Shown here: piece by piece, positions 1 to 38,233 of the stretch
Layout of the letters: every line of letters starts with the position of its first letter
How positions within the stretch are numbered: position 1 is the stretch's first letter
Source of the DNA: a virus
Direction: 5' to 3' (one strand)
UHGV virus genome: UHGV-0256613
DNA length: 40,973 bases
Notes under the pieces: model-generated
What the model saw: only the letters and a program-made list of their open reading frames with translations
Databases searched by the model: none
Told to the model about the DNA's origin: nothing
Program-made: the position numbers and the translations under genes

Positions 1-157
1 CTGAGGGTGAAATAATCCCGTTCAGCGGTGTCTGCCAGTCGGGGGCTGGTTGCATTATCCACGCCGGAGGCGGTGGTGGCTTCACGCACTGACTGACAGA
101 CTGCTTTGATGTGCAACCGACGACGACCAGCGGCAACATCAGCGCGCAGAGTTTCAT
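1..157 (-). CDS. Rz1: o-spanin Rz1, embedded in +1 frame inside Rz (truncated)
   Basis: ATG at 157 inside Rz gives [42 protein letters not shown]: lipobox (VVGC) and proline-rich stretch typical of Rz1; no stop before window edge. Confidence 0.7.
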
Positions 158-392
158 TTTCAGCTTTCGCATTGGCTAATTCTCTCGAGTACTTTGCATC
201 GAGTGCAGCAACATCACGCTGACGCTGCTGCATGTCAGCGATGGTGGCGATCGACTGCTTCAGCTCACTGACTTTTTTATCACGCTGTTCTTTGTAGGCG
301 ATGGCGTTATCACGGTAATGATTGACCGCCCACGACAGGCAGACGATGATGCAGATAACCAAAGCATAAATAATCGCGGCGACTCTGCTCAC
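1..392 (-). CDS. Rz: i-spanin Rz (3' end truncated at window edge)
   Basis: Minus-strand translation from GTG at 392 reads [39 protein letters not shown]...[21 protein letters not shown], the N-terminal TM plus coiled-coil pattern of lambda Rz; start overlaps the endolysin stop; ORF runs off the window start. Confidence 0.85.
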
Positions 393-922
393 TGCTCTAT
401 CCCCCAACAGGCTAATGCGCTTTCCTGGTCACGACGAATAACCTGTCCATAGCAGTTATTTGAACGTATGCGGCAATCGCGCCCACCATCTTTTATCCAC
501 CAGCGAATCGCCTCGCATGCCCCCTTACGATCACCGGCATTCAGCCGCTTATAAAACGTCGACGGGAAACACTTACCGGGGCCAATGTTATAGGGACAAA
601 ATGACGCTATACCCGCTTTCTGTGGTTCGGTCAGTGGTACTTTAATATTGCGCTCCACCCATGCCAGCGCCTTATCACGTTCAATAGCGTTAACCTGGTC
701 GCATTTTTCCTTCGACAGCTTCATTCCCGGTATGACGGGCTTACCATCCACCATTATGGCACCACGACAGATGGTCCATATACCGGAACCATCGCGGTAT
801 GCCGTAGTGTGGTTACCCTCTTTTTCATCCAGAAACTGGTCAAGGATTTGAGGAGCTGACGCGCCTGCAGCAATCAGCGCCAGAACAGCAGCTGACAGGC
901 CGTATTTGATTTTTGCGCTCAT
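389..922 (-). CDS. R: SAR-endolysin (phage lysozyme, T4-lysozyme-like fold)
   Basis: 177 aa; N-terminal hydrophobic signal-anchor-release segment ([18 protein letters not shown]) then E-x8-D-x5-T catalytic spacing ([16 protein letters not shown]); placed between holin and Rz. Confidence 0.9.
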
Positions 923-977
923 GGATATTTATCAGGATGCTACCAATGAAAGATACTGGAAAGCCAACTGCAAAAAG

Positions 978-1292
978 CTAACAACCCGTAATCGAGTTAT
1001 CAGAACTGTTAATTTTTATGGTATACCGCGCCTCTGAACAGGGGCGCGTTTCTGGCAACAGCTCGTCCCCTTCACATAACCCGGCAGCAACATCCAGGAA
1101 GACCTGTCTGATGCTCCTTCTGGCTGCTGCCTCATAAAACTCCAGCGCGGCACCTTCAACACGGTCCAGCGAGATGTCCAGGTCAAAAATTTCACCGTCA
1201 AAGCGGTTTTTGTCCCGTAACGCTAAAGTTACCGTAACTTTATTCTCAAAATTGCGGATCCCTTTCACAATCAGTTCATAGTTTTGAGTCAT
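978..1292 (-). CDS. DUF1327 family protein (YdfR-like) within lysis cassette
   Basis: 104 aa MTQNYELIVKGIRNFENKVTVT...; recalled resemblance to Qin-prophage YdfR that sits between holin and lysozyme. Confidence 0.7.
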   Translation of the reverse strand: MTQNYELIVKGIRNFENKVTVTLALRDKNRFDGEIFDLDISLDRVEGAALEFYEAAARRSIRQVFLDVAAGLCEGDELLPETRPCSEARYTIKINSSDNSITGC

Positions 1293-1296
1293 TGAA

Positions 1297-1512
1297 TTAC
1301 TCTCCCCGTGCAGCCTTACGCTTGTCTTCTTTAATCTTGAAATAAAGATTTGTCAGATACGTCAGCAGGCCAAACACCAGACTACCCAGCACACCTATTG
1401 CCGCCCACTGTGAGGGCGTGACTTTATCGAGCAACTGTAAAAACCAGTACCCGGCACTACCTGCTGAGGTGCCATAGGCGACACCCGTTGTTAACTTATC
1501 CATGGATTTCAT
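1297..1512 (-). CDS. S: class II pinholin (S21-like) with dual-start MKSM motif
   Basis: [71 protein letters not shown]; two TM segments, basic C-terminus, Met1/Met4 dual start typical of antiholin/holin pair. The ORF track extends to 1575 via an upstream alternative start. Confidence 0.8.
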
Positions 1513-1579
1513 AACCCCACCTCGCAGATGCGGGTGCTGTGTAATGGAAATAAAAAGGCCACCTGACGTGGCCACCAGA

Positions 1580-2632
1580 TTATTTCCCCACCAGCTCGTT
1601 TATCTCTTTCACTGTCTGGTTAAACCGCTCTGACTCAAGCTCAACACCTAAGGCCCGACGCCCCAGCGCCATTGCTGCTTTTATTGTGGAACCGGATCCC
1701 ATAAAAAAATCAGCAACCAGATCACCAGGTCGACTACTGGCATTGATTATTTGCCTGAGCATATCCGCCGGTTTCTCACACGGATGTTTACCCGGGTAGA
1801 ACTGAACGGGTTTATGCATCCAGACATCGGTATAAGGCACGGAGACTGATACGGAGAAATAGCGCCGGAGAGATTTAAACTCATCCAGCAATTCAGAATA
1901 TTTGCGATTCAGTGAATCATAAGATGCCACCAGCTGGTGGTGTGGTTGTTCCAGTTGTTGTTCCTGAAACTTCTCTGCCGCTATACGGGAAAACAGTGCC
2001 TGTAACTTCCGATAGTCAGCCTCATTCGGCAACTGCCACTGACTGGCACCAAACCAGTGGGAAACCATATTTTTCTTACCTGTGGCTTCGGCAATTTGTT
2101 TTGCCGTTATACCCAGTTCGGCACGAGCATCCCTGAAATACGATATCAGCGGTGCCATTATGTGCTGTTTGAGTTCCCTTTCTTTTGCCGCATAGCCGTC
2201 ACTTTTGCCGCGATATGGCCCCTGGTAATGTTCAGCAAACAGAACGCGCTCTGTGGCAGGAAAATATGCGCGCAGACTTTCTTTATTACACCCATTCCAA
2301 CGTCCGGACGGCTTCGCCCAGATGATATGGTTAAGCACGTTGAAACGTTCACGCATCATGATCTCAATATCAGATGCCAGGCGATGCCCACAGAACAGGT
2401 AAAGGCTTCCGGCAGGTTTTAACACCCGCCAGAACTGGGCCAGACAGTGGTCCAGCCACTTAAGGTAATCTTCGTCCCCTTTCCACTGATTGTCCCAGCC
2501 GTTGGGTTTCACCTTGAAGTACGGCGGATCGGTAACAATCAGGTCAATGGAATCATCAGGCAGGGACTGAATAAAATGCAGGCAATCAGCGTTGATTAAA
2601 TCAACACTGTTTATTTTTACAGTATTTTTCAT
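1580..2632 (-). CDS. DNA methyltransferase (N6-adenine/N4-cytosine type, DPPY motif)
   Basis: 350 aa; motif [11 protein letters not shown] near N-terminus and AdoMet-binding FFMGSGST near C-terminus (beta-class amino-methyltransferase order). Confidence 0.85.
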
Positions 2633-2782
2633 GGATCAGTAAGCGTAACTCTGGTAGGCTCACTCTGCTTTTGCGCTAAAGCAGTGGGCCGTGGTTCGCT
2701 TGTGACCAGTAAGCATGAGCGAATGGCTGGCAGGTGCTACCAACACCCACCAGCCGCCCATTTTCACAGCAGGAAACCGCCA

Positions 2783-3010
2783 TTACTGGCAGCGTCTGAA
2801 TTTATTCCCGTACCCGCCGTTATCCTTCGCCAGACCCGCCAGAACTAACTGAGTCAGTATTAACTGGCACCGGGCTTCGCTTACTCCGGTAGTTCTCGTC
2901 ATCATGCGTGGCGTTACCCACTTGTCAGCAGGTAAGAAATGAAGGACTGCTGCGGCGGTTTCTGTCATATCTTGCTGTTTTAGCATGTCTTTTTCCCTTC
3001 TGGTTAACAT
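2783..3010 (-). CDS. hypothetical small protein
   Basis: 75-aa ORF between Q and the lysis genes; no recognised domain. Confidence 0.4.
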   Translation of the reverse strand: MLTRREKDMLKQQDMTETAAAVLHFLPADKWVTPRMMTRTTGVSEARCQLILTQLVLAGLAKDNGGYGNKFRRCQ

Positions 3011-3107
3011 GACATACCAATAACTCTTGTCTAAAAAGCCAGCAAGATAAAAAGTCAGTATTCACGACCACCAGCGTGTTTACTGTACTGCACCAGGTTT
3101 ACAGGTA

Positions 3108-3131
3108 CAAAAAAACCGCTCAGCGGCGGGT
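3108..3131 (-). terminator. weak intrinsic terminator-like hairpin (candidate late-leader terminator)
   Basis: On minus strand: short GC stem (CCGC/GCGG, 3-nt loop) followed by TTTTTTT; lies downstream of Q and upstream of the lysis genes. Confidence 0.3.
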
Positions 3132-3256
3132 TTAAGTTGTGTGGCGAAGTAACCACTCTTAACAGCATATTTGATTTTTTACGATTGTAAACGGTTGATT
3201 ATTCATCTCCAATAAAAATAATTGTGTGGGTATGCCCTTAACAATGGATAAGAAAC

Positions 3257-3703
3257 ATGAATAAAATGACTGTATTATTACTTAGCGCAACTATCATTTC
3301 AGGTTGTACTTCTTCCGTACCATTGATAAAGAAAACTCAATCAGGAAAACCTGAGGGGGTTTATCAAAATACGACAAAAGATAAAGTCAAAGATGCCCTT
3401 GTGAATTACTGCAATAGTAGAGGGTTGATAATTTACAACGCGGATAACAGCAGTGTTATATGTGGTAAAGAACTGGAAGGCGGGTCTGCTGTTTTTGGAC
3501 AAATGTTAATCGGCAATGCCTATTCAACAACCCCGGTATCAAAAGTCAAATTTACTATCGCTCAAGTTAATAACGATACAAAAGTGTGGGCCGATATGTG
3601 GATGGAAACTCAAATGGCAATGGGGCAAGTACAACAAATGGCTATAACAGACAACGCAAGCAAAAACACTATCCAACAACGTCTTGATGAATTAAAACCT
3701 TAA
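3257..3703 (+). CDS. lipoprotein (moron), unknown function
   Basis: 148 aa; signal peptide with lipobox LLLSATIISGC; AT-rich; opposite strand to all flanking phage genes; followed by a hairpin terminator. Confidence 0.7.
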   Translation: MNKMTVLLLSATIISGCTSSVPLIKKTQSGKPEGVYQNTTKDKVKDALVNYCNSRGLIIYNADNSSVICGKELEGGSAVFGQMLIGNAYSTTPVSKVKFTIAQVNNDTKVWADMWMETQMAMGQVQQMAITDNASKNTIQQRLDELKP

Positions 3704-3723
3704 GTAAATTAATTAAATAAAAT

Positions 3724-3745
3724 GGGGAGAATAAATCGACTCCCC
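3724..3745. terminator. bidirectional intrinsic terminator
   Basis: GGGGAG-aataaatcga-CTCCCC hairpin; T/A-rich flank on the minus strand (attttattt); sits between convergent lipoprotein and Q genes. Confidence 0.5.
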
Positions 3746-3787
3746 ACACATTAAACTGATTCAATTACCCCCTCAATAAGAGGTCTT

Positions 3788-4153
3788 CTAACGATCCATC
3801 TCTAGCTCAATTTCTAACATCATTAACATGCCATCAACTACACCTTCAGCCTTTTGCAATAAACGCCCAACCCAGCAATCAGAACGCCCATGTTTACGGG
3901 CAAGCGCCATAAACGTCATACCACCTACATAATAATCCACTAATAAATCGTGCAAATCGCTGTTGTTCTTTTTCAGGCGAGCCATGCATCCACAAATGAT
4001 CATCGCGTCATCGTCACAACATTGCGGGCGGGATTTTACTTTTGAAGGGATTAGTCCTTTAAATCCTGCAGCAATAGACGACCAAGTGACATCCTCGTGA
4101 TTATTTGCCACCCATGCCCCCCAACGTTCAAGAACCATTTGAATATCACGCAT
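3788..4153 (-). CDS. Q: late-gene antiterminator Q (QuuD / phage-21 Q-like)
   Basis: [33 protein letters not shown]...[18 protein letters not shown] matches recalled QuuD; GGAG SD before ATG at 4153. ORF track extends to 4168 (TTG). Confidence 0.85.
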
Positions 4154-4170
4154 CAACTTTCTCCACAAAA

Positions 4171-5166
4171 TCAGGCCAGCACGCCAATTGCCAGCGCACG
4201 ATCGATAAAACGAAATATCAGCTCCAGCTGGGAGCCATACTTCTCTTCAAATGCCACGGTATCCGCATGCAGCTCGTCGTGATGCTTTCTGCACAAAGGC
4301 AACACAAAAAGGTCATGCGCTTTTGTTCCCATTCCACCCTGACCGTGACCTATCAGGTGGTGGGGATCATCAGCGGGCTTTCCACAACATGCACACGGCT
4401 GTGTCTTAACCCAGCGCGTGTACTTTTCATTAACCCAGCGGCGACGTTTTGGGCGTAACATAAAAGACTCCGGCGACTCCGGATCCACTTTCAGCGCCAG
4501 CACCTTTTTCGCCTTATCCTGGATGATGCTGGTGGCAGGAACCGAAGGCACAAGGTCACTTTCCCGGGTAACAGACGGCACAACAGGCTTCGGTAATCTC
4601 AGTGCCTTACGGGCTGCACTTTCCGGTAAGGCATCCGCCAGATCATTACGAATCAGCCACCAGCACAGTTCCGGCATTGTCACAACGTGACTGTCATCAA
4701 AACCGAGATCCCGACGCACAACAGACAACACCCAGCGGGCACAGTTATCCGTTGCCATTGATTCCAGCCGTTCCGTGAACTGATCGCGCAGCTGGTTATC
4801 GCAGTGCCAGCACAGACGGATTGCACCCGGAGCGTGTCGCATTGTGGTCATGTTCTCGCTGTGCCAGTCGGAATGAGGCCACTGGCAGCCTTTTTCACGA
4901 AGTAACCAGCTTTCAAGACATTCCACGCCACCAGCACGACGGATCACTGCCTCATTGCGGAACACGGCCCGAACGGCAGGATCATCCGCCAGCGGTTGTG
5001 ATGCCGCCGGAACGGCACCACTGGCGAAAGATGAATAACGTTCCGGCTCAGGCTCCAGCAGGACACGCCCCTGCATAAACAGGGGCATCAGCTCTGAACC
5101 TGGCCTGAACAATACGATCCCCATACGCGGGGCAATTTCAGGGGTCAGTAGTGCTCTCACGGTCAC
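4171..5166 (-). CDS. DUF968 domain protein (YdfU-like) with C-terminal HNH-like Cys/His motif
   Basis: 331 aa; C-terminus [21 protein letters not shown]...CRKHHDELH; typical nin-region location next to Q. Confidence 0.75.
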
Positions 5167-5167
5167 C

Positions 5168-5977
5168 TCAATGAACGGTATCGAGCAGCTTTAACAGCTC
5201 AGGGAATCGGGATTCGAAGAAATGCGGCTGCGTCTCGCGCGGATTTGCGGGACTGGTGATGTTCTTGCCGAACATGCAGCCTTTCGCCGTCAGCGACCAG
5301 AATTTTTTGATGTTGTTAATCGCGGTACGGCTGTATCGTTCGCGCTGCTCGACGATCCCCAGCTTCACCATCTGGTGATATGCCTGATTAGCCGTCAGGC
5401 GGATACCATACTGTTTCAGCAGTGCACTCAGTGACAGTGTCGGGCGACTTGAGCCATCGTGTGCATCAGCAGGAGCATCAATGGCATAGCGCGGTGCCAG
5501 ATTCGGTAAGCCAACAGCCTCCTGGAGTTTCTGACAGGCACCAAGCACTGATGAGTTAGACAGGTTTAATTCCCGGCGCATAAAGTCCAGCAGGATCACG
5601 CCAGCCTGCATCTTGTCAGCAGCCTGTCCGGATAATTTTTCCGGTGCGCTGGTTACCATATCGAAAGTACGGATCACCTTCAGATGGAATGACGGGCTGA
5701 TCCACATTGCATAGGCATACACCAGTTCCTTGCAGACATACGTTCCCCGTTCATTTCCCCCATGAATCACACTCACCGGGTCAACACCCAAATTCTGGGT
5801 GTTGGTCAATTCATGAACAAGCTCAACAGTTTGTTGGCTGGAAAGAAACTTTCCTGGCTCCTTGGTTCTGGCATTTGCACCAGATGCTACTGCTGCGCGA
5901 TGCAGATCGTTCAGGCTGTAACGCCCATAAGCATCACGACGAACTTCAATACCATCAATGACCATCAGATTATTCAT
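5168..5977 (-). CDS. KilA-N domain protein
   Basis: MNNLMVIDGIEVRRDAYGRYSLNDLHRA... N-terminal KilA-N-like domain; GGAG SD before ATG at 5977. ORF track extends to 6010. Confidence 0.75.
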   Translation of the reverse strand: MNNLMVIDGIEVRRDAYGRYSLNDLHRAAVASGANARTKEPGKFLSSQQTVELVHELTNTQNLGVDPVSVIHGGNERGTYVCKELVYAYAMWISPSFHLKVIRTFDMVTSAPEKLSGQAADKMQAGVILLDFMRRELNLSNSSVLGACQKLQEAVGLPNLAPRYAIDAPADAHDGSSRPTLSLSALLKQYGIRLTANQAYHQMVKLGIVEQRERYSRTAINNIKKFWSLTAKGCMFGKNITSPANPRETQPHFFESRFPELLKLLDTVH

Positions 5978-5996
5978 ACTTCGTTTCTCCTCTTGA

Positions 5997-6386
5997 TCAG
6001 GCGGCTGCACCCGCCGTTTTCTCGTACTTACTGATGGTGATCTCGACCTTCCCTTTCGGGATAACCGGTCCCCACTCCACCAGCATTCTTTTCACCTGTC
6101 TGTCGTCTTCCCACACACCCGCGTGGGTCAACGCGTCAAACAGCGCCTTGTTATAGTTGTCCAGATCGCGGATCCGGTTATCCGGAGGAAACAACACGAT
6201 CTCCACTGCAGCAGGTGCCGACGTTGGTTTTGGCAGACGACGTAACTGCTCAACTATTGCTGCGCACGCCGCGCTCTGAAATTTTCGCCCCGCCGCGCTT
6301 ATCAGGCTCTTACCAGCAAATGCCCCTTTGTTGGGGTGTCGCCAGTACGTGTTCACGCTGGGCGGGAAAGGCAGGATCAGCTTCAT
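5997..6386 (-). CDS. rusA: Holliday-junction resolvase RusA
   Basis: 129 aa; LPFPPSVNTYWRH...DLDNYNKALFDALTHAGVWEDDRQV matches RusA signature (DLDN acidic catalytic motif). Confidence 0.85.
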   Translation of the reverse strand: MKLILPFPPSVNTYWRHPNKGAFAGKSLISAAGRKFQSAACAAIVEQLRRLPKPTSAPAAVEIVLFPPDNRIRDLDNYNKALFDALTHAGVWEDDRQVKRMLVEWGPVIPKGKVEITISKYEKTAGAAA

Positions 6387-6709
6387 ACTTTCAGGCCTCT
6401 CTCATGTAACCAGTGGGTTGCACGCAGCCTGGCGTTTTCCTCACCGGCAAGCAGTGAGCGGATAATCCCGACCGCCTCGCTGTCGTCGTCCTTCACCGCG
6501 GTATGAAGAGTGATACCCCGGGCCACGCCACGCTTTATCGTGATGACGCCTTTTTTCTCCAGTGCGCGAAGATGTTCCACCGCTGCATTCACTGAACGGT
6601 ATCCCAGCATGGTTGCCACCTCCTGATTGGTTGGCGGGAAGCCACGTTCTTTCTGATAAGAAATCAGCATATCCAGCACCTGCTGCTGGCATTGAGTTAA
6701 CGTCGTCAT
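6383..6709 (-). CDS. LexA-family DNA-binding-domain protein lacking the S24 peptidase domain
   Basis: 108 aa; LTQCQQQVLDMLISYQKERGFPPTNQEVATMLGYRSVNAAVEHLRALEKKGVITIKRGVARGITL parallels the LexA N-terminal winged-helix almost motif for motif; no Ser/Lys protease domain follows. Confidence 0.65.
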   Translation of the reverse strand: MTTLTQCQQQVLDMLISYQKERGFPPTNQEVATMLGYRSVNAAVEHLRALEKKGVITIKRGVARGITLHTAVKDDDSEAVGIIRSLLAGEENARLRATHWLHERGLKV

Positions 6710-7359
6710 GCCGCCATCTCCCTGACCAGTTTTTCCGCCTGCTGGCGAACCTGCGCCAGAAACGCCTCACCACATGCCTCAAGTTCATCGCGCCCGATGT
6801 AGCTGATTGCCGGTCCCTTCCAGGTCTTGTCGAAAACAGCAATAGCACCAGCGAAGAACGCTCCTGTCGGCACCTGCTTCTCATCCTTCGGGATAAACCA
6901 GGCAGGCAGTTCAAAACCAATACGCCCGCGAATAAAAGCAATATGGTCTGCATCTTCCGGCCACCAAACTTCGCTGGTGGCAGCTTTGATCAGGAAAACA
7001 TAGCGCCCGCCCTTATCACGCATGGCACTGGCATGCTTCATGATGTAACGCATGCCGGTGATGTATTGCCCCTCATGCTGACTGGCGCGGCTGTATGGGG
7101 GATTACCAAAGGCAGCACCTTTAAGCTCCGCAAGACGTTCTGACCAGTCATGCGCCAGCGCGTTGTCTTCCGCCGTGTAATACGCAGCACATTTGGCGTT
7201 ATCACCGTCAGTGAACAGATCCAGAACAAACGGGCCAAACAGGGTGTTAATTCCCCAGAAAATGTTGTCCGGCGTGCGCCACTGATCACCTACTTCCTTC
7301 AGTTCATGGGCTGGTTTGTTCCGCAGTTCCACCAGCTCCTGGCAATATTTATTACTCAT
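6706..7359 (-). CDS. phage Dam-family N6-adenine DNA methyltransferase
   Basis: GNPPYS motif IV; ATG at 7359 overlaps the stop of the upstream gene. ORF track extends to 7392. Confidence 0.85.
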   Translation of the reverse strand: MSNKYCQELVELRNKPAHELKEVGDQWRTPDNIFWGINTLFGPFVLDLFTDGDNAKCAAYYTAEDNALAHDWSERLAELKGAAFGNPPYSRASQHEGQYITGMRYIMKHASAMRDKGGRYVFLIKAATSEVWWPEDADHIAFIRGRIGFELPAWFIPKDEKQVPTGAFFAGAIAVFDKTWKGPAISYIGRDELEACGEAFLAQVRQQAEKLVREMAA

Positions 7360-7853
7360 TAAGCCCCCACGTAATTCCCTGAGAGATACCACTCTTCACC
7401 TGATGCAGCCCGCTTACTGCTTTTCCGTAAACACCGTTCACGACGTGCCAGAAAATTGTTTCGTTCTGGCTGGGAGTGGCTTTCACGGAATGCCGCCATC
7501 CACACCGTTGCAGCACGACGGTATAAGCCCCTGGACTCCAGTTCTTCCGCCTGGCGGGTCAGGCACAAAATCACCCGGGGATCGTTAGTGCCGACATAGA
7601 AATTGCGCACAGGTCTGGTTTCACGAACTGGTTGTGGTTCCGGCTCCTGCGCTCTCTCAGTCAGGCGTGGGAAATGTCTGCGTGTATCTCCTTCACAACG
7701 GTGAGCCACACGCCCACTCTGACGTAACTTGCTTGCTGACTGCAGAACGCGCTGCCGTGAGTAACCTGCAAAAGCATCCGCAATGTCTCCGGAAGTACAC
7801 CCCGGATGGGCTTCAATGAATTTCTGAACTTCATTCAAAAGACTCATGATCAC
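7359..7853 (-). CDS. hypothetical regulatory protein (possible PerC-like C-terminal region)
   Basis: 164 aa; helix-rich N-terminus; C-terminal LTRQAEELESRGLYRRAATVWMAAFRESH recalled as PerC-like; low certainty on family. Confidence 0.55.
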   Translation of the reverse strand: MIMSLLNEVQKFIEAHPGCTSGDIADAFAGYSRQRVLQSASKLRQSGRVAHRCEGDTRRHFPRLTERAQEPEPQPVRETRPVRNFYVGTNDPRVILCLTRQAEELESRGLYRRAATVWMAAFRESHSQPERNNFLARRERCLRKSSKRAASGEEWYLSGNYVGA

Positions 7854-8668
7854 CCCCTGAATCCTGCCGGGATCTGGCTGTAGTCCACGTTGTCGTAACT
7901 GGCTTTGAAGTACGGGTCCTCGCGTCTGGCTGCAGATACCGCAGGAACTTCCCAGAATTCTTCGAAATGACGATCCGGACCAAAGAACGTGACAGCCTGT
8001 TTCACAAATTGTGTGCCGCTGTTACCCATCGCAGATACCCAGCCCGCGTAGCGTTTCACACCTTCCAGCATGGTTTCGGGGTTTACTCCCTCATTCAAAC
8101 GGGCTTTCCAGGCTTTGAAGGCTGCAGATTTTGAATTGCCACCAGCACGTTTGGGATATGCCAGCCATGCCTGCTCAAACTCCGGAGAGTATTCCGGTCG
8201 GTTTGAACGAACTCGCACGGACTCATCAACTGATGCACCAACAGCTATTGGTTCATTGACTGGTTCTTTGACTGGTTCAAAAGAGTGACTGGTTCTGGGT
8301 GAATCTCCTGCACTACCCCCTGGTGCAACTCCTGCACTACCTGGTGAATTTGCTGCACCAGATAGTGAATTATTTGCACTACCCCCTAGTGAATCTCCTG
8401 CACCATCCAGATGAAGGAGATAGATATTACTTGAGTTACCTTTTTCACCTTTCCGGGTGACTTTTTTTACCAGCCCGGACTCACAAAGGGCCGCAATATG
8501 ATTCATCACAGAACGTTTGCTAATTTCGCACTGGTCAGCAATATGCTGGTAGCTGGGCCAGCACTCACCCTGATCGCTGGCATTATCAGCCAGCTTGATC
8601 AGAACCAGTTTTCGCAATGGATTACCCACTCGAATTTTCATCGCTTTAACCATCAGCTCCATACTCAT
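7850..8668 (-). CDS. replication initiator (O-like, N-terminal HTH) with iterons inside the coding sequence
   Basis: 272 aa; N-terminal HTH (PSYQHIADQCEISKRSVMNHIAALCESGLVKK); low-complexity Gly/Ser/Ala linker encoded by the tandem repeats; lambda-O-like arrangement. Confidence 0.7.
   Translation of the reverse strand: MSMELMVKAMKIRVGNPLRKLVLIKLADNASDQGECWPSYQHIADQCEISKRSVMNHIAALCESGLVKKVTRKGEKGNSSNIYLLHLDGAGDSLGGSANNSLSGAANSPGSAGVAPGGSAGDSPRTSHSFEPVKEPVNEPIAVGASVDESVRVRSNRPEYSPEFEQAWLAYPKRAGGNSKSAAFKAWKARLNEGVNPETMLEGVKRYAGWVSAMGNSGTQFVKQAVTFFGPDRHFEEFWEVPAVSAARREDPYFKASYDNVDYSQIPAGFRG
8299..8410. repeat. five tandem imperfect 21-24 bp direct repeats (candidate ori iterons) followed by an AT-rich stretch
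   Basis: Units GTGAATCTCCTGCACTACCCCCTG / GTGCAACTCCTGCACTACCTG / GTGAATTTGCTGCACCAGATA / GTGAATTATTTGCACTACCCCCTA / GTGAATCTCCTGCACCATCCAG, inside the replication gene. Confidence 0.55.
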
Positions 8669-8901
8669 GCTGCACCTCCGAGATGCTTCATGTTTTTTCC
8701 GGAGCGAAAGGCTATAAGCGGCATACTGACGCGGTAATTACGGCCCAGCGGTTCACAAATCACCTTCTGGCATTCACGGTCAACCAGGCTAACACGTAGA
8801 ACATGCCCTGCAGGCGTGGTGTACCACTGCCCAACTGTAGGAATTGATGTTTTTTTACGCTGAAGCAAACGGCAAATATTGAGGATCAACGGATTAAGCA
8901 T
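8665..8901 (-). CDS. hypothetical small protein
   Basis: 78-aa ORF overlapping both neighbours by a few nt (coupled arrangement). Confidence 0.4.
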   Translation of the reverse strand: MLNPLILNICRLLQRKKTSIPTVGQWYTTPAGHVLRVSLVDRECQKVICEPLGRNYRVSMPLIAFRSGKNMKHLGGAA

Positions 8902-9730
8902 GACGATGCCCTCCGCTGATATTCAGGAGACGGTGAATATGAAAATTAGCCTTATCCGCCAGACGAATACGTTCAGCCTGCAAGTTAAGAAGGGTTTCTA
9001 CCAAAACCTGATGCGCCTGCGGATCCGAAAGAGTTACCTTGCGCAGAGCACGTAGTGCAGTTGTTACATAACTGAGTTTATGTAAGTCTTCATCATTCAG
9101 ACGAGAGAGGGCTGGGACAGTAGCCATGATGGCAGCCTCCGTATGCAATGGATAACTTCCACCACCGGAAACGCCAATTTCGCTGGTGGTGAACTGAGCA
9201 GGGTTGGCGTAACCGGCGCATACGGAAACCGGCGCACCTTTCGGTGCCCCCACCCAGCCCACCATAATTTGGGTATAGCTGAGTTGTAGCAACAAAAAAG
9301 ACGCTAACGCGCCAATTGTCGCCGTATGCAATTCCAGGACGCCAATCCCGACACCCACTTTATAAGGTGCCTGAACAGTGTAACGTCCCGGAATGGCAGA
9401 ATCAATGTGCTGGTGGTCCTTCACACTCAACAAAATCACGCCTGAATTTCCACAAAGGACTAAAGCACTCATGCGGGTAGTCTTTGCGAAGATAGATAAC
9501 GCGCTGTGTTTCTGGCTCCCAACGAATAACATGGACATAAAGCCCTCTTCCGTCACGAAACCAGCGGTTAAGTTCCTGCACAACTCGCCCCCCACAGTCA
9601 GGTAAAGTTCTCTGTGGTTACTTACAGCCAGGTGATTTGGTAATCTGCATTCATGCCGTAACAACAGGTGTTCAGCGACGCTGACCACCAGCTGTTGCGA
9701 CAAACGGTTATTTGCCGTTAAACTGTTCAT
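8894..9730 (-). CDS. hypothetical protein (start uncertain; alternative ATG at 9265)
   Basis: 278-aa ORF whose ATG overlaps the CII-like stop (ATGA); the N-terminal 155 aa are not convincingly protein-like, and an internal ATG at 9265 gives MVGWVGAPKGAP..., matching the 28-codon relic at 38016-38098. Confidence 0.4.
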   Translation of the reverse strand: MNSLTANNRLSQQLVVSVAEHLLLRHECRLPNHLAVSNHRELYLTVGGELCRNLTAGFVTEEGFMSMLFVGSQKHSALSIFAKTTRMSALVLCGNSGVILLSVKDHQHIDSAIPGRYTVQAPYKVGVGIGVLELHTATIGALASFLLLQLSYTQIMVGWVGAPKGAPVSVCAGYANPAQFTTSEIGVSGGGSYPLHTEAAIMATVPALSRLNDEDLHKLSYVTTALRALRKVTLSDPQAHQVLVETLLNLQAERIRLADKANFHIHRLLNISGGHRHA

Positions 9731-10290
9731 GCGTTAGTTTCTCCACAGACACAAAACGCCACGACGCCCGGAGCTGCACACTCGCGGGCGTCACTCTTTT
9801 CTGGAGCGCAAAAGATTTTGTAGACCAGTGCTGCATGCTCCTGGAGCTTCGAAATTGACAGATACAACTCATCATTAATTGCTGTCTGCTCGTGTGGCTC
9901 CACTACCCCATCTTCGATTGCCGAACGAATCTGCTTTGAGTAACTCCCGATCTGTTCGATGACTTCCAGCAGGCGCTGGTTTATATCGGCGTTCTCTACT
10001 TCCTCAATTTCAGGAAGCGATACAAACACCCCACCAGCAGACTGTGCGACAGCATCCGCAATGTAGTGAGTGCCAGCCGCGCGCTGTAAAATCATTGCCC
10101 ATCCCAGCGGGAAAATCTGATCGCCATCTGCACGAAGGCGGTTGAATAAAGCGTTCTCTGTTACATCCAGCCACTCAGCAGCTTCAGCGTACCCCCCCGG
10201 CAACGCCGCGATAGTTTTTCTGACAGCTTTCACGTACCACTCAGGCTGTTTTTCTACTTTCCAGTGATGCTTACCCACGGTTAGCCTCAT
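9727..10290 (-). CDS. CII-like regulatory protein (possibly Phage_CP76 family)
   Basis: 187-aa ORF immediately downstream of cro in the early-right operon; family assignment from recall only. Confidence 0.5.
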   Translation of the reverse strand: MRLTVGKHHWKVEKQPEWYVKAVRKTIAALPGGYAEAAEWLDVTENALFNRLRADGDQIFPLGWAMILQRAAGTHYIADAVAQSAGGVFVSLPEIEEVENADINQRLLEVIEQIGSYSKQIRSAIEDGVVEPHEQTAINDELYLSISKLQEHAALVYKIFCAPEKSDARECAAPGVVAFCVCGETNA

Positions 10291-10321
10291 CGTTCTGTGG
10301 TTAAAAATTGAAGGTGTTCTG

Positions 10322-10522
10322 TTAATCTTTCGGATAGATATCCGGTCTTAAGTCAGATTTCGTAATTGCACCTGACGTGCATTGCTCAAGTTTTTTAGCC
10401 AGCACAAAACTGGCTTTTTTATAACCATTGAAAACCAGCCGTAAGTAGCCTGGTGTTGAGCCAACTTTTCCGGCCAACTCGCCCTGCTGTTCTTTGGTTA
10501 AAGAGTCCCAATACGCTTTCAT
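10322..10522 (-). CDS. cro: Cro-like HTH regulator
   Basis: 66 aa MKAYWDSLTKEQQGELAGKVGSTPGYLRLVFNGYKKASFVL...; GGAGGT SD; divergent from the cI gene. ORF track extends upstream to 10825. Confidence 0.7.
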   Translation of the reverse strand: MKAYWDSLTKEQQGELAGKVGSTPGYLRLVFNGYKKASFVLAKKLEQCTSGAITKSDLRPDIYPKD

Positions 10523-10612
10523 ACAATATGTACCTCCGATGTACATATTACATGATTGAGATGAACCTTCAAGATACTTGTACCCTATCGGTACAAAGGT
10601 TTTAATTTCGTT
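10523..10612. promoter_or_regulatory. cI/cro divergent operator-promoter region
   Basis: Two palindromes with 5-nt spacers: ATGTA-catat-TACAT (10539-10553) and TTGTACC-ctatc-GGTACAA (10578-10596) between divergent cro and cI starts. Confidence 0.5.
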
Positions 10613-11287
10613 ATGAAAACAGTCCATGACATCCGGCGGTCTAACGCCAGAAAACTGAGAGATGGTGTTGGCGGGAATTCTTCCTTTGCCACCATGATTG
10701 ATCGCGAGCCAACCCAGACCAGCAGGTTTATGGGAGATGGTGCTACTAAAAATATCGGTGACAGCATGGCACGGCACATCGAAAAATGTTTCGACCTGCC
10801 TGTCGGATGGCTTGATCAAGAACACCAGACAACAAACATCACAAAAAAACCTGATGTTTCAATTACTAACAAACAAATAACGTTAGTCCCTGTCATATCA
10901 TGGGTACAGGCCGGAGCATGGAAAGAAGTTGGCTATTCTGAGGTTGATTTGAGCACAGCAGAAACTTATCCCTGCCCTGTACCCTGTGGCGAAATGACTT
11001 ATATCTTGCGGGTGATTGGTGATTCAATGATTGATGAGTACCGCCCGGGAGACATGATTTTTGTTGATCCTGAAGTCCCTGCCTGCCACGGTGACGACGT
11101 TATTGCATTGATGCACGATACAGGCGAAACCACCTTCAAGCGGTTGATAGAAGATGGAACACAGCGTTACCTCAAAGCATTAAACCCAAACTGGCCTGAA
11201 CCTTACATTAAGATCAACGGTAATTGCTCTATAATTGGTACAGTGATTTTCTCAGGAAAACCAAGAAGATACATAATAAAGGCCTAA
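10613..11287 (+). CDS. cI: CI-type repressor (HTH plus LexA-like S24 peptidase domain)
   Basis: 224 aa; C-terminal autocleavage-type domain (VIGDSM...DMIFVDPEV...GDDVIAL); divergent from cro. Confidence 0.85.
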   Translation: MKTVHDIRRSNARKLRDGVGGNSSFATMIDREPTQTSRFMGDGATKNIGDSMARHIEKCFDLPVGWLDQEHQTTNITKKPDVSITNKQITLVPVISWVQAGAWKEVGYSEVDLSTAETYPCPVPCGEMTYILRVIGDSMIDEYRPGDMIFVDPEVPACHGDDVIALMHDTGETTFKRLIEDGTQRYLKALNPNWPEPYIKINGNCSIIGTVIFSGKPRRYIIKA

Positions 11288-11300
11288 TCAATATTTATAA

Positions 11301-11321
11301 CCTGCTTCGGCAGGTTTTTTT
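11301..11321 (+). terminator. rho-independent terminator after cI
   Basis: CCTGC-ttcg-GCAGG hairpin followed by TTTTTTT. Confidence 0.7.
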
Positions 11322-11407
11322 ATACTTGACAATGTACCCTTGGGATACATAATGTATCTAAAAGAAACACAACACAGGCAAGATTAAACAAAATTTGGTT
11401 GTAACAC

Positions 11408-11757
11408 GGCGTATGGCACATGCGTCGTTAGCGGTCTGGGGACGTTAAAGGGGACAATCCACTCCTTGCTCGGGCAAACAAACCAGGTAGCCGGAATGTG
11501 CAAGTCAATGATGATGCTGATAAGACGCCTAACCAGCGTGGCGATCCGGTTTGACGCCTGGGAAGAGACCAGGGTGCAACGATGAGGGTATTTATGGAGC
11601 CGCGACAAAGTGTGGTGCCGTAACTGGCTAAGTGCTCTCAGCGTTGTGGTAATCCGCGAAATGGCGCGGCGGTAAGTATGGCGGGGTTACTCTTTCCCCG
11701 TTGAGGACACCGGATTGTCAGGTTGACCATACGCCTGAGTGACAACCCCACCACAAC
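11408..11757 (+). ncRNA. candidate structured RNA, left copy (conserved ~240-nt module plus a 115-nt multi-stem 3' domain)
   Basis: 11408-11650 is homologous to the reverse complement of 18574-18829; no plus-strand ORF; UCGG tetraloop hairpin CUUGC-UCGG-GCAAG; stem CCUGG/CCAGG covaries with CCUCG/CGAGG in the other copy; 3' domain closed by GTTGTGG(11643-11649)/CCACAAC(11751-11757) with nested hairpins. Confidence 0.4.
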
Positions 11758-11953
11758 AGCCACTGCTTTGGCGGTACCAGTTTGTACACTTGCTTCCGGC
11801 TGGTACCGCTCTTTTTACAAAACAGAGAAGAGCATCACCGGACGACGGGCTCATAACCCAATCCATCCGGGCGGCTGCCACCGCAGGTGTTCTTCTCTGT
11901 TTTGTGGAGAAACTAATCGGCCTTGCAGGGTCGATATGATGAGGAGCAACAAA

Positions 11954-12316
11954 ATGGCTAGCGAACGCAGTACTGATGTGCAGGCATTTATCGGGGAGCT
12001 GGACGGCGGCGTATTTGAAACAAAAATCGGCGCAGTTCTCAGTGAAGTCGCTTCCGGTGTGATGAACACGAAAACCAAAGGTAAGGTCTCACTCAACCTG
12101 GAAATCGAACCATTTGATGAGAACCGTGTGAAAATCAAACACAAACTCTCATATGTTCGCCCGACTAACCGCGGGAAAATTTCCGAAGAAGACACCACCG
12201 AAACGCCGATGTATGTCAATCGCGGTGGTCGCCTGACTATTCTGCAGGAAGACCAGGGACAATTACTGACTCTTGCCGGTGAACCTGACGGAAAACTCCG
12301 CGCAGCAGGTCGTTAA
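11954..12316 (+). CDS. YfdP-like hypothetical protein
   Basis: 121 aa from ATG with GAGGAG SD; MASERSTDVQAFIGELDGGVFETKIG...; first gene of a YfdP/Q/R/S-like block. ORF track extends upstream to 11723. Confidence 0.6.
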   Translation: MASERSTDVQAFIGELDGGVFETKIGAVLSEVASGVMNTKTKGKVSLNLEIEPFDENRVKIKHKLSYVRPTNRGKISEEDTTETPMYVNRGGRLTILQEDQGQLLTLAGEPDGKLRAAGR

Positions 12317-12381
12317 TATCATACTTAATAAACTGATTATTTATCTCATCACTGAATATCTTTATATAGTGAGGACTGATT

Positions 12382-13206
12382 ATGTCTCATAACTTAGACG
12401 CAACCGCAATTAATCAAATCCATGCCCTTATTTCTGCTCAGGGTGTTAATGAAATCATCAGTAAGATTGGTGCCGATGCTGTGGCATTGCCTGAGAATTT
12501 CCGCATTCATGATCTGGAAAAATTAAATTTAAATCGCTTCCGTTTCCGTGGTGCGCTTTCCACTGCCAGCATCGATGACTTTACCCGTTATTCTAAAGAT
12601 CTTGCAGATGAAGGCACCCGCTGCTTTATCGATGCCGATAATATGCGTGCCGTCAGTGTGCTTAACCTGGGTACTATTGATGAACCAGGTCACGCAGATA
12701 ACACCGCCACTCTCAAACTGAAAAAGACAGCACCGTTCTCTGCTCTGTTGTCTGTTAACGGCGAGCGTAACTCCCAGAAGTCACTAGCAGAATGGATTGA
12801 AGACTGGGCCGACTATCTTGTGGGCTTTGATGCTAATGGTGACACCATTCAGGCAACCAAAGCGGCTGCGGCGATCCGTAAAATCACAATTGAAGCGAAC
12901 CAGACCGCTGATTTTGAAGATAATGACTTCAGCGGCAAACGCTCCCTGATGGAGTCTGTCGAAGCGAAGACCAAAGACATTATGCCAGTGGCATTTGAAT
13001 TTAAATGCGTTCCGTTTGAAAGCTTGAAAGAACGTCCGTTTAAATTACGTCTCAGCATTATCACTGGCGATCGTCCTGTACTGGTTCTGCGCATTATTCA
13101 GCTGGAAGCGGTGCAGGAAGAAATGGCTAACGAATTTCGTGATCTGCTTGTTGAGAAATTCAAAGACAGCAAAGTAGAAACCTTTATTGGTACTTTCACC
13201 GCCTGA
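12382..13206 (+). CDS. YfdQ-like protein (DUF2303)
   Basis: 274 aa, same length and gene-order context as CPS-53 YfdQ; family recalled, not searched. Confidence 0.7.
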
Positions 13207-13220
13207 TTTCATTACTGCAA

Positions 13221-13240
13221 ATGCCCCTGCGGGGGCATTT
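13221..13240 (+). terminator. hairpin (possible attenuator/terminator) after the YfdQ-like gene
   Basis: ATGCCCC-tgc-GGGGGCAT followed by TT; weak U-tract. Confidence 0.35.
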
Positions 13241-13334
13241 ATGGAAACGTAATTAACTCAATAATCGCCGGATGGTAAGGGCTTCTTTTTACCAAAATTC
13301 AGTGCGGTGCAGCGCACATAACGTGGAGAACAAA

Positions 13335-13871
13335 ATGTCATTTATTAAAACTTTTTCCGGGAAGCATTTTTATTATGACAAGATAAATAAAGACGACATC
13401 GTTATTAACGATATCGCGGTTTCCCTTTCAAATATCTGTCGCTTTGCAGGGCATCTTTCACACTTCTACAGCGTCGCCCAACATGCGGTGCTTTGCAGCC
13501 AGCTGGTACCGCAGGAATTTGCTTTTGAAGCGTTAATGCATGATGCAACAGAAGCATATTGCCAGGACATCCCCGCACCACTGAAACGACTTCTTCCTGA
13601 CTATAAACGGATGGAAGAAAAAATAGACGCCGTAATCCGTGAGAAATACGGGTTACCCCCAGTTATGAGTACGCCCGTGAAATATGCCGATCTCATCATG
13701 CTGGCAACCGAACGCCGCGATCTCGGGCTTGATGATGGCTCTTTCTGGCCTGTACTGGAAGGCATCCCGGCAACAGAGATGTTCAACGTGATTCCACTGG
13801 CACCGGGTCATGCCTACGGGATGTTTATGGAACGTTTTAACGATTTATCGGAGTTACGCAAATGCGCATGA
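13335..13871 (+). CDS. HD-domain phosphohydrolase (YfdR-like 5'-deoxynucleotidase)
   Basis: 178 aa from ATG with GGAGAA SD; HD motif context (ALMHDATEAYCQDIPAPLK). ORF track extends upstream to 13272. Confidence 0.75.
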   Translation: MSFIKTFSGKHFYYDKINKDDIVINDIAVSLSNICRFAGHLSHFYSVAQHAVLCSQLVPQEFAFEALMHDATEAYCQDIPAPLKRLLPDYKRMEEKIDAVIREKYGLPPVMSTPVKYADLIMLATERRDLGLDDGSFWPVLEGIPATEMFNVIPLAPGHAYGMFMERFNDLSELRKCA

Positions 13872-14224
13872 ATATTTTCGAAATGGAAGGGTTTCTTCGC
13901 GGGAAATGTGTACCGCGAGATCTGAAAGTGAACGAAACAAATGCTGAGTACCTGGTACGTAAATTCGACGCGCTTGAAGCTAAATGTGCGGCACTGGAAA
14001 ACAAAATAATACCAGTGTCAGCTGAACTGCCACCAGCAAATGAAAGTGTTCTGTTATTTGATGCTAATGGAGAAGGCTGGCTGATTGGCTGGCGTTCTCT
14101 CTGGTACACCTGGGGACAAAAAGAAACCGGAGAATGGCAGTGGACATTTCAGGTCGGGGACCTTGAAAACGTCAATATCACTCACTGGGCAGTAATGCCA
14201 AAAGCACCGGAGGCTGGAGCATAA
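13862..14224 (+). CDS. DUF551-like C-terminal domain protein (YfdS-like)
   Basis: 120 aa; C-terminal W-rich motif ending ITHWAVMPKAPE. Confidence 0.6.
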   Translation: MRMNIFEMEGFLRGKCVPRDLKVNETNAEYLVRKFDALEAKCAALENKIIPVSAELPPANESVLLFDANGEGWLIGWRSLWYTWGQKETGEWQWTFQVGDLENVNITHWAVMPKAPEAGA

Positions 14225-15003
14225 TGACCACATTTACCAATAAAGAACTGATTAAAGAAATCAAAGAACGAATCAGCAGCCTAGAGGTTCGAGACGATAT
14301 TGAGCGCCGTGCTTATGAAATTGCTCTGGCATCGCTAGAAGAGGAGCCGGTGGCATGGCTGCATTCAGAAAATGGCTTAGGTATTCCGGCAATAACGAGG
14401 AGTAAAAACATTGCTGACAGTTGGTTATCAAAGGGCTGGTATGTTCAGCCGCTATATATAGCCAAGCCAGTGCCGGTAGTGCCAGATGCTCGTCCGTCTT
14501 TAAATAATGGCATAGTCGGTTTTGATGAAGGCTGGAACGCCTGCCGCGCCGCCATGCTTCATGGTGCCAAACCTGTAAACCAAACTTACAAGTCACCACA
14601 CACGCTGTTTGAACAAGTTGCTGACCTCTACGAAATGCAATTTGATGACGGTCGCACTTGTGCCTTTCACACTGATGCGCAAAAGGCTGCGCAATGGCTT
14701 CAGGTGTGCGACGGAAACAGGGTTCAGGAATACGTTAAGCTGGAACGGCTGCAGAACGCGCTGTCTGGCAACTCTCCGGTAAGTCCGGGTGGTTGGATAA
14801 GCTGTAGTGAGCGAATGCCGAACGATAAACAGTATGTTTGGTGTTGGGGTAAGTCTTACGGCTGGACTGAGTGCGATACCTTCGAAGGGTATTACGATTG
14901 GTCGAGAAACAAATGGTGGGCAGTTACTGACGATGGGGAAGAACCGGCATCGAAAGTAACCCACTGGATGCCGCTACCAGAACCGCCGCAGGAGGTGAAG
15001 TGA
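14224..15003 (+). CDS. hypothetical protein with C-terminal DUF551-like domain
   Basis: 259 aa; C-terminus ...WCWGKSYGWTECDTFEGYYDW...VTHWMPLPEPP. Confidence 0.65.
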   Translation: MTTFTNKELIKEIKERISSLEVRDDIERRAYEIALASLEEEPVAWLHSENGLGIPAITRSKNIADSWLSKGWYVQPLYIAKPVPVVPDARPSLNNGIVGFDEGWNACRAAMLHGAKPVNQTYKSPHTLFEQVADLYEMQFDDGRTCAFHTDAQKAAQWLQVCDGNRVQEYVKLERLQNALSGNSPVSPGGWISCSERMPNDKQYVWCWGKSYGWTECDTFEGYYDWSRNKWWAVTDDGEEPASKVTHWMPLPEPPQEVK

Positions 15004-15125
15004 TGAACAAGTGCAACGCTCTGCTTTATGCCATGGTGATTGGTTTCGGCCTGGTTGCTGGTATCCGGGTTTATATTACCTGGGAGTCATTAATCAATCT
15101 GGCGTGGAGTGCGATTCGTGGCTAA
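15003..15125 (+). CDS. possible small hydrophobic membrane peptide (40 aa)
   Basis: ATG overlaps the upstream stop (TGATG); MNKCNALLYAMVIGFGLVAGIRVYITWESLINLAWSAIRG; not in ORF track (below size cut-off). Confidence 0.3.
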   Translation: MNKCNALLYAMVIGFGLVAGIRVYITWESLINLAWSAIRG

Positions 15126-18496: not shown

Positions 18497-18573
18497 TGGC
18501 GTGGCATGCAGGATTCGAACCTGCGACCAACCGCTTAGAAGGCGGTTGCTCTGTCCAACTGAGCTAATGCCAC
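18497..18573 (-). tRNA. tRNA-Arg (anticodon UCU), phage-encoded
   Basis: Minus-strand GTGGCATTAGCTCAGTTGGACAGAGCAACCGCCTTCTAAGCGGTTGGTCGCAGGTTCGAATCCTGCATGCCACGCCA folds as a cloverleaf: 7-bp acceptor, D-arm GCTC/GAGC, anticodon loop CUUCUAA, T-loop TTCGAAT, encoded CCA; acceptor stem differs from recalled host argU. Confidence 0.9.
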
Positions 18574-35011: not shown

Positions 35012-35083
35012 AACAGCGAAGCCCAACGGTGGCCAGACCGTCAGGGCTTCAGTATCGTAAAACTACGTATAGGAATTAACGAC

Positions 35084-37966: not shown

Positions 37967-38015
37967 AGCGATCACCTTTGTAGTTAGGTTAATCACCACC
38001 GCTGAGACCAATCAG

Positions 38016-38098
38016 ATGGTGGTGAACTGTGCAGAGTTGGTCTTACCGGCTACAAAGGAACCCGGCGCACCTTTCGGTGCCCCCACACAGCCCACCAT
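38016..38098. repeat. diverged duplicate of 9184-9266 (leader/N-terminal module with GNRA hairpin)
   Basis: ggtggtgaactg..cccggcgcacctttcggtgcccccac..cagcccaccata shared by both loci; here encodes only a 28-codon relic (MVGCVGAPKGAPGSFVAGKTNSAQFTTI*) upstream of the Bro-N antirepressor. Confidence 0.7.
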
Positions 38099-38233
38099 AG
38101 AATAGGTGCGCTTTACACATAAAAAAACCGCTTATGCGGCATATGTGCCTCTGTAGTAATCCGGGAGACCAATCCCGGCACTGGATTTTGCCAGTGCCCG
38201 ATTACTATGGCACAAGAGGAGTGCAATGTAAAT

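Follow-up and report, generated by a model that had tools for sequence, protein, structure and literature searches.

A predicted outer-membrane lipoprotein encoded by a cargo cassette between Q and the late promoter of a lambdoid prophage

Through lipoprotein morons, among them Bor, Cor and Llp, phages are known to remodel the envelope of their host. Llp of T5, Cor of phi80, N15, HK022 and T1, and Rtp45 (~6 kDa) of Rtp are lipoproteins of the inner leaflet of the outer membrane that block the receptor of their own phage from the periplasmic side, and receptor-binding genes are found close to llp, cor and rtp45 (PMC12685063). Together with Cor, HK97 gp15 provides a precedent for phage-excluding morons in tail operons; its gene is expressed from the prophage, relatives of it are known in bacteria apart from phages, and the exclusion leaves surface receptors unblocked and depends on features within the tail region of the incoming phage (PMC3594210). 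Here we describe a lipoprotein gene of 148 amino acids (aa) in UHGV virus genome UHGV-0256613, a stretch of 40,973 nucleotides (nt) that is referred to below as the window. The kind of element, a prophage lipoprotein moron for lysogenic conversion (moron in the sense of Juhala et al. 2000, PMC3594210), is well known, while the family itself is uncharacterised, has no entry in Pfam or NCBIfam, and bears no relation to the examples already described. With a probability of roughly 45%, we read the gene as a mobile lysogenic-conversion cassette inserted between the antiterminator gene Q and the late promoter PR', encoding an outer-membrane lipoprotein that likely gives envelope-level protection against phages.

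Members of this family resemble Llp, Cor and Rtp45 in being phage-encoded, in their predicted outer-membrane location and, for most homologues, in being coded near tail or receptor-binding genes. Llp and Cor are keyed to FhuA and Rtp45 to LptD, whereas the lipoprotein studied here has a mature form of ~14 kDa, a modelled helix-grip fold, and no covariation with the receptor-binding domain of the tail-tip protein J. Like HK97 gp15 it is a single-gene moron, and most of its homologues sit in a lambdoid tail operon, but gp15 is a small inner-membrane protein, a relative of YebO, and unrelated in sequence. Lambda Bor (Iss) is a lambdoid outer-membrane lipoprotein moron near the lysis genes that is expressed in the lysogen, as is predicted for the gene studied here; its slot, however, is downstream of Rz, its size and fold differ, and it shows no homology. 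Hidden Markov models (HMMs) of Bor (PF06291) and TraT (PF05818) gave no match at E ≤ 0.1 for the lipoprotein or at E ≤ 0.05 for 33 of its homologues, and the statement of an earlier annotation, made from the letters of the window alone (the first-pass annotation), that the protein is not Bor-like can be upheld. The porin genes nmpC of DLP12 and lc of phage PA-2, the latter with a lysogenic-conversion phenotype, occupy the same slot between Q and PR' in the same orientation, opposite to Q and the lysis genes, and also encode an envelope protein; the product is a beta-barrel porin of ~365 aa without sequence relation to the 148-aa alpha+beta lipoprotein.

A conserved lipoprotein gene in an AT-rich cassette

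The features on which the analysis rests are the following.

3257-3703, plus strand: coding sequence of the prolipoprotein, 148 aa, stop codon included, from the list of open reading frames (ORFs)
3305-3307, plus strand: codon of the predicted lipidation site Cys17, after a predicted signal peptide (residues 1-16) and ahead of a predicted mature periplasmic domain of ~131 aa
3192-3787, plus strand: AT-rich cargo cassette of ~600 bp (promoter, coding sequence, hairpin), from break points and the dip in G+C content (GC)
3195-3222, plus strand: candidate sigma-70 promoter TTGATT-16 nt-AATAAT, 9/12 match in a consensus scan
3724-3745, no strand assigned: hairpin rich in GC that separates the stop codons of the lipoprotein gene and of Q, stem 7-8 bp, -11 kcal/mol
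3788-4168, minus strand: Q antiterminator of QuuD type, 126 aa (PF06530, E 2e-51; ~82% nucleotide identity to K-12 quuD)
3164-3191, minus strand: late promoter PR' of QuuD-type Q, -35 TTTACA 3191-3186, 16-nt spacer, -10 TATGCT 3169-3164, from scan and alignment
3108-3131, minus strand: terminator tR', stem GCCGCTGAGCGG then T7, ~30 nt downstream of the predicted PR' start

The ORF at 3257-3703 is a real gene and its product a predicted lipoprotein, as the first-pass annotation had proposed. A 701-bp region that includes it is present in 185 of 5426 complete E. coli genomes (~3%), in which the gene is full-length, and the RefSeq entry of its product (WP_001038605.1) is labelled 'hypothetical protein'. 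The carriers include clinical, enterotoxigenic (ETEC) and avian isolates, and their sources range over human, pig, dog, chicken and pigeon. Two induced phages, PhiR40_1 and PhiR55_1, carry the region too, and they were the sole matches in a tblastn search of 50,697 sequenced phages; a plasmid search returned four records in all, and a literature search turned up no study of this lipoprotein. The gene is under strong purifying selection: compared with the Salmonella orthologue, the proportion of nonsynonymous differences (pN) is 0.19 and that of synonymous differences (pS) 0.78, and the ratio of the corresponding rates (dN/dS) between two orthologues is ~0.07. A chance ORF, or a decaying remnant in AT-rich spacer DNA, might be suspected from the bare 'hypothetical protein' label and from the lack of a Pfam or NCBIfam family. 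The conservation data effectively refute this alternative, given full-length retention in the 185 genomes, 790 homologous clusters, the strong purifying selection, and a confident fold prediction.

The N-terminus of the protein is MNKMTVLLLSATIISG followed by the cysteine to be lipidated. We applied a PROSITE PS51257-type lipobox rule ([LVI][ASTVI][GAS]C, Cys at position 15-35, K or R in the n-region), and the protein has IISG directly before C17, K3 in the n-region, and an uncharged h-region; this signal peptidase II lipobox agrees with the LLLSATIISGC named previously. Across an alignment of 33 diverse homologues, some with as little as 29% identity to the window protein, Cys17 never varies. 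Two further residues, Cys52 and Cys69, are likewise invariant in this alignment, which suggests a periplasmic disulfide between them. Under the strict rule a lipobox is present in 108 of the 148 family representatives, most of the remainder having truncated or relaxed lipoboxes. In Enterobacterales, according to the Lol-avoidance rule, Asp at position +2 is the inner-membrane retention signal. The +2 residue here is Thr, and Asp occupies this position in none of the 108 lipobox-bearing representatives; sorting to the outer membrane is therefore predicted, and the protein would be anchored there facing the periplasm.

The gene lies in DNA of deviant composition, with a GC of 0.34-0.39 over 3000-3900 against 0.46-0.59 in the flanks, which bears out the AT-richness remarked on earlier. 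On the left, comparison with prophages that have the same PR' and other cargo places a break point at 3191/3192, right at the border of the -35 element of PR'. On the right, homology to other quuD-type Q loci ends near 3794, a few nt from the Q stop. As homology ends on both sides, the insert is a single-gene cassette of ~600 bp whose sole ORF is the lipoprotein gene. As expected of a moron, it is extra DNA of deviant base composition that related phages lack at this site: prophages that share its PR'/tR' and its type of Q carry other cargo. The earlier reading of the gene as a moron is supported: it is a horizontally acquired, AT-rich cargo gene next to Q and oriented opposite to both Q (3788-4168, minus strand) and the lysis genes.

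A possible promoter and a bidirectional terminator had also been assigned to the gene. For the promoter, the match at 3195-3222 predicts a transcription start near 3229, ~27 nt ahead of the ATG, and stands back-to-back with PR'. It is retained as a candidate, the AT-rich region containing 8 promoter-like matches where 3.3 are expected from shuffles. A second match at 3238-3267 (10/12) was discarded, as its -10 element overlaps the start codon. From the candidate at 3195-3222 the lipoprotein gene would be expressed in the repressed prophage. For the terminator, the hairpin at 3724-3745 does exist, and the end of homology near 3794 indicates that it travels with the cassette. Its T-run is on the minus-strand side only (GGGGAGTCGATTTATTCTCCCC-ATTTTATTT); on the plus strand the stem is followed by ACACATTAAAC, without a U-tract in the direction of the lipoprotein gene, and the scan calls a minus-strand terminator only. 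Since the T-run is limited to one strand, we do not accept the hairpin as bidirectional.

The slot between Q and the late promoter

The position of the gene was resolved by aligning the minus strand from the lipoprotein start to the first late gene, which encodes a 75-aa protein, in the window and in five other prophages. All six loci have an invariant initial transcribed stretch, GTTAAGAGTGGTTACTTCGCCACACA(A/G)CTTAAA, and behind it a strong terminator, in the window at 3129-3108 (stem GCCGCTGAGCGG and then T7). The PR' hexamers and spacer stand directly upstream of this stretch in the window and in two prophages with a related Q, and different sequence is found in place of the window's hexamers in the other three; these differences may reflect different Q types. 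The segment 3100-3165 is common to ~950 of the 5426 complete E. coli genomes at 90-100% identity, with break points between 3164 and 3192. The same PR'-leader-tR' element (3108-3191, minus strand, in the window; 2040-2125 in locus L117) lies between nmpC and essD in K-12 DLP12 and is also present in phiP27, mEp460 and phage cdtI. As predicted from these sequences, PR', its short leader and tR' are the classic lambdoid arrangement, and the lipoprotein gene is placed between the Q stop and the PR' -35 element, upstream of and divergent from PR'. Late transcription would consequently not cross the gene, and its earlier placement as embedded in the late operon has to be abandoned, the gene being outside the late transcript. 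An antisense reading of the gene by late transcription was considered and rejected, PR' being located downstream of the gene.

Several other prophages carry cargo in the same slot (for the five apart from DLP12, loci L004 3095-4324, L037 2800-4251, L039 2657-4069, L038 2659-3138 and L003 3153-4079).

DLP12 (K-12), opposite strand to Q: the porin gene nmpC, plus the insertion sequence IS5
phiP27, same strand as Q: L22, a 409-aa GIY-YIG protein matching PD-Lambda-1 (E 2e-89)
E. coli H8, opposite strand to Q: a 483-aa ATP-dependent, OLD-like nuclease matching HEC-04 (E 4e-47)
mEp460, RM11911 and ECONIH6, opposite strand to Q: cassettes of one or two genes, function unknown

The H8 nuclease also matches ATPase-Toprim and AriA/GajA models. 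The cassettes of mEp460, RM11911 and ECONIH6 gave no match in PADLOC and are candidates for new defence genes. Given this variety, the slot is a hotspot whose cargo is mostly oppositely oriented and, judging from the sequence matches, includes genes of envelope conversion and of anti-phage defence. The first-pass annotation had equated the site with the place between Q and the holin where related phages carry toxin or other cargo genes, and the comparison with the toxin slot does not hold: the stx2e genes of phiP27 are downstream of PR', the methylase and tRNAs, in a different slot from that of the lipoprotein, and the slot between Q and PR' holds nmpC, PD-Lambda-1 and the OLD-like nuclease. 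A precise cargo slot between QuuD-type Q and PR' is now mapped and offers a place in which to seek further prophage defence genes.

Downstream of tR' the minus strand carries the following genes.

2783-3010, minus strand: 75-aa protein, PHROG 331 (function unknown), first late-transcript gene after tR' and left neighbour of PR'/tR'
1580-2632, minus strand: N6/N4 DNA methylase (Pfam)
1297-1575, minus strand: P21-type holin (Pfam)
978-1292, minus strand: DUF1327 protein (Pfam)
389-922, minus strand: lysozyme (Pfam)

The PHROG 331 protein and the methylase thus lead the late transcript, with the holin behind them, and many prophages keep the two together, among them phiP27, mEp460 and E. coli prophages; the phiP27 counterpart of the PHROG 331 protein is annotated 'TrmB family regulator'.

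A mobile family and its possible functions

Pfam and NCBIfam scans assigned the lipoprotein to no family, and a Pfam scan of the 33 diverse homologues returned lipid-attachment-site matches only. PHROG 3152, of unknown function, matches over the full length (E 6.3e-104, residues 1-148 against profile positions 1-148 of 148). The defence HMMs of PADLOC-DB v2 gave only PbeC (E 0.013, 12 bits), which we read as noise. A word-indexed search found ~30 relatives, all in Enterobacterales, and an exhaustive profile search found 790 clusters (50% identity) at E ≤ 1e-3, of which 397 are at E ≤ 1e-10. Homologues, of which none had been recognised before, are thus abundant and typically found in tail-tip clusters of other prophages, although all are uncharacterised. 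The majority are 140-160 aa lipoproteins in which the motifs TxSGxPE, GN(S/A)YSTTP and ETQMAxGQ recur. Part of the distant homologues have ordinary signal peptides in place of lipoboxes, and in some the lipoprotein domain is fused to C-terminal PDZ, SHOCT or TPR (YfiO-like) domains (among others P0100, P0142, P0163 and P0096; L033 7950-8912; H148, on an Erythrobacter plasmid). A large family carried by many Enterobacterales and Pasteurellaceae prophages stands without a Pfam or NCBIfam model or a solved-structure match.

The AlphaFold (AF2) model, with a predicted local distance difference test score (pLDDT) of 85, is a helix-grip alpha+beta domain. The model's fold matches, with their table values, are KA1 domains (9.3), the Francisella lipoprotein Flpp3 (8.8) and the BamC N-domain (8.0), then Bet v1/SRPBCC proteins and DUF4468 (≤ 8.0). 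BamC domains, Flpp3 (DUF3568) and KA1 are alike in this modelled fold but have sequence identities of 6-11% and no profile-level relation to the lipoprotein, and the fold is a common one that does not define function. With identities of 6-17% across the listed matches, the fold alone assigns no function. A profile search over all PDB sequences gave no match, and a Foldseek search of the BFVD viral structures gave none at E ≤ 0.001, the best being an unnamed 'Lipoprotein' with a template-modelling (TM) score of 0.31.

Genomic contexts were compiled from ten protein look-ups and from scans of two collections, IMG/VR and species-representative genomes. In IMG/VR, every one of the 50 copies with at least 97% identity occupies the Q slot, opposite in strand to Q and 81-86 bp away from it. 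Among copies of 48-70% identity, 18 of 19 belong to tail-tip clusters of lambda-like type and point the same way as the tail genes, and the remaining one lies in a nin region; the junctions used by divergent copies are those of the tape measure (H) with gpM, gpM with gpL, and gpK with gpI. The tail-module position also prevails in the species-representative genomes, in most Enterobacterales and Haemophilus loci, and individual look-ups found it in Salmonella, Jejubacter, Citrobacter and metagenomic contigs. Prophage homologues occur further in Photorhabdus, Xenorhabdus, Haemophilus and Phytobacter, the Phytobacter copy being in the nin region, and one copy adjoins P1-like DarA_N/ddrB genes. 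A Kosakonia radicincitans copy of 46% identity (L119 6001-6453) is carried by the 118-kb MOBF/MPF_F conjugative plasmid pKrDSM107547, where it adjoins an integrase and IS21, so that the family is not confined to phages. Distant members adjoin RecT/Gp157 or umuDC/SRAP genes, the Stenotrophomonas copies lying beside umuD, umuC and an SRAP gene; in the high-GC loci (Stenotrophomonas, an alphaproteobacterial metagenome-assembled genome, and IMG/VR L110-L116) ORF calls are noisy and contexts were partly classified by a Pfam check. Canonical intrinsic terminators directly follow the tail-module copies in L020 and L016. These varied contexts mark the family as a mobile accessory gene, enriched in tail modules, that is carried by temperate phages and also by mobile elements of other kinds. 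As a side observation, E. coli fECg99.1 has a 112-aa hypothetical gene between a gpI-like tail assembly protein and J (L120 9166-9504), possibly another moron at a junction used elsewhere by the lipoprotein family.

Lysogen expression of the lipoprotein, and with it lysogenic conversion, is plausible from this architecture, and its role is probably protective at the level of the envelope, since related prophages hold a porin gene or anti-phage defence genes in this slot. In the repressed prophage the gene would be transcribed from its own sigma-70 promoter, and its product would act on the envelope from the periplasm-facing side of the outer membrane. Most likely it would shield the lysogen from incoming phages, and possibly from colicins too. 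The likely mechanism would be binding of a conserved envelope component, not of the receptor used by the J protein of its own phage. Among individual functions, exclusion of phages or colicins by way of a conserved partner in the envelope is considered the likeliest. Several observations weigh against this. The promoter at 3195-3222 is a consensus match in AT-rich DNA, and a recognisable upstream promoter is mostly missing from the tail-module copies examined, so these may be expressed late and point to a role in the lytic cycle. In a PDB profile search and a PADLOC scan, the protein resembled none of the proven exclusion lipoproteins in sequence or fold. The protein is also about twice the size of Rtp45, and Llp and Cor too are small proteins. 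Finally, the fusions to PDZ, SHOCT and TPR domains suggest a general periplasmic binding module for which a link to phages is not required.

The data do not decisively discriminate between this protective role and three rivals, namely masking of the phage's own receptor, a Bor/TraT-like factor, and a lytic-cycle accessory. Masking in the manner of Llp, Cor and Rtp45, in which the lipoprotein would bind the periplasmic face of its own J receptor and allosterically block adsorption, would protect lysogens and prevent loss of progeny on cell debris. It would fit a predicted outer-membrane lipoprotein of which the majority of the divergent homologues lie in the tail-tip cluster, a few genes from J, as do llp, cor and rtp45. 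The lipoprotein sequence, however, does not track the C-terminal domain of J. Near-identical or similar lipoproteins occur with very different J C-terminal 200 aa (98% against 30% identity for loci L099/L102, 100% against 20% for L107/L108, and 87% against 20% for L012/L026), and the Spearman correlation of the lipoprotein with the J C-terminal 200 aa is 0.38, compared with 0.47 for both gpL and the J N-terminus. Three E. coli prophages with cassettes at least 99% identical have J C-termini of 50-56% and tape-measure proteins of 28-95% identity, and between PhiR40_1 and the Salmonella copy the lipoprotein is 77%, gpL 33% and the J C-terminus 18% identical. The PDB search, moreover, gave no sequence match to the Llp or Rtp45 chains. 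For want of covariation with the J C-terminus we rejected own-receptor masking as the leading model and consider it quite improbable; given this independence from the J tip, if the lipoprotein excludes phages, its target must be conserved.

A host-interaction or virulence factor like Bor, Iss or TraT, serving serum resistance, adhesion or survival in an animal host, would agree with a small outer-membrane lipoprotein moron near lambdoid lysis genes that is probably expressed in the lysogen, with the bor gene that DLP12 carries beside the same lysis cassette, and with the clinical, ETEC and avian isolates among the carriers. We hold it to be unlikely in view of the Pfam scans, which show similarity to neither Bor nor TraT, and of the broad range of carriers and of the homologues in Photorhabdus, Xenorhabdus, Haemophilus and Phytobacter; with carriers and homologues so ecologically broad, no single host niche stands out. 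A lytic-cycle accessory, which would be needed late in infection, for instance to prepare the outer membrane or peptidoglycan for lysis or release or to prevent superinfection during lytic growth only, the copy in the Q slot being an unusual relocation, has a similarly small chance. The majority of the divergent homologues are co-oriented with late tail operons, are tightly packed within them, and lack a convincing promoter of their own, and weak PHROG matches to Rz-like spanins (E 0.02-0.035) point the same way. Against it, the spanin matches span the signal peptide and lipobox only (residues 1-45), prophages of this type possess an Rz/Rz1 pair themselves, the tail-module copies are followed by terminators, and copies are also found in the early nin region and on a conjugative plasmid. 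The window gene itself lies outside the late transcript and divergent from it, and so could not be expressed with the late genes. Identity as an Rz1-like o-spanin was rejected separately, the PHROG matches (E 0.018-0.035) covering only the signal peptide and lipobox in residues 1-45; o-spanins are small, proline-rich lipoproteins of the outer membrane whose genes accompany or lie within an i-spanin gene of the lysis cassette, whereas this gene is on the opposite strand, outside the lysis cassette, and encodes a modelled folded domain of 130 aa.

Returning to envelope-level protection, a bolder form of it is that the window protein represents, in E. coli, a large undescribed family of periplasmic helix-grip lipoproteins on mobile elements, and that this family as a whole confers receptor-independent exclusion, either through attachment to a conserved envelope machine such as BAM, Lpt or Tol-Pal, or through interference with some conserved periplasmic stage in the DNA delivery of siphophages. 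We regard this version as doubtful, with odds clearly against it, yet it would explain both the home of the family in tail-tip clusters and its indifference to the receptor-binding domain of J. If true, exclusion that is independent of the receptor used by the carrier would represent a new class of envelope-level defence and would bear on host range in phage therapy.

Other features of the window

From 142 to 15010 the window is homologous to PhiR40_1-like lambdoid prophages at 99.6%, and this homology ends near 15010. The remainder (15000-40973) matches a different phage module with terminase, portal and capsid genes, a T7-gp14-family core protein and an SLT transglycosylase, and also with Arc/antirepressor genes, a YafO toxin and a tail fibre. 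The break near 15010 indicates that the window is either a chimeric prophage or two adjacent prophages. A tRNA-Arg (anticodon TCT; 18497-18573, minus strand) between the terminase and portal genes of the second module is phage-borne and not an attachment site at a prophage end. Each module has one copy of a C4 antisense RNA and isrK pair (9182-9370 and 38015-38197, minus strand; Rfam 57-81 bits), and a sar RNA, the antisense RNA of P22 immI type, is located at 35015-35082 near the Arc/antirepressor genes.

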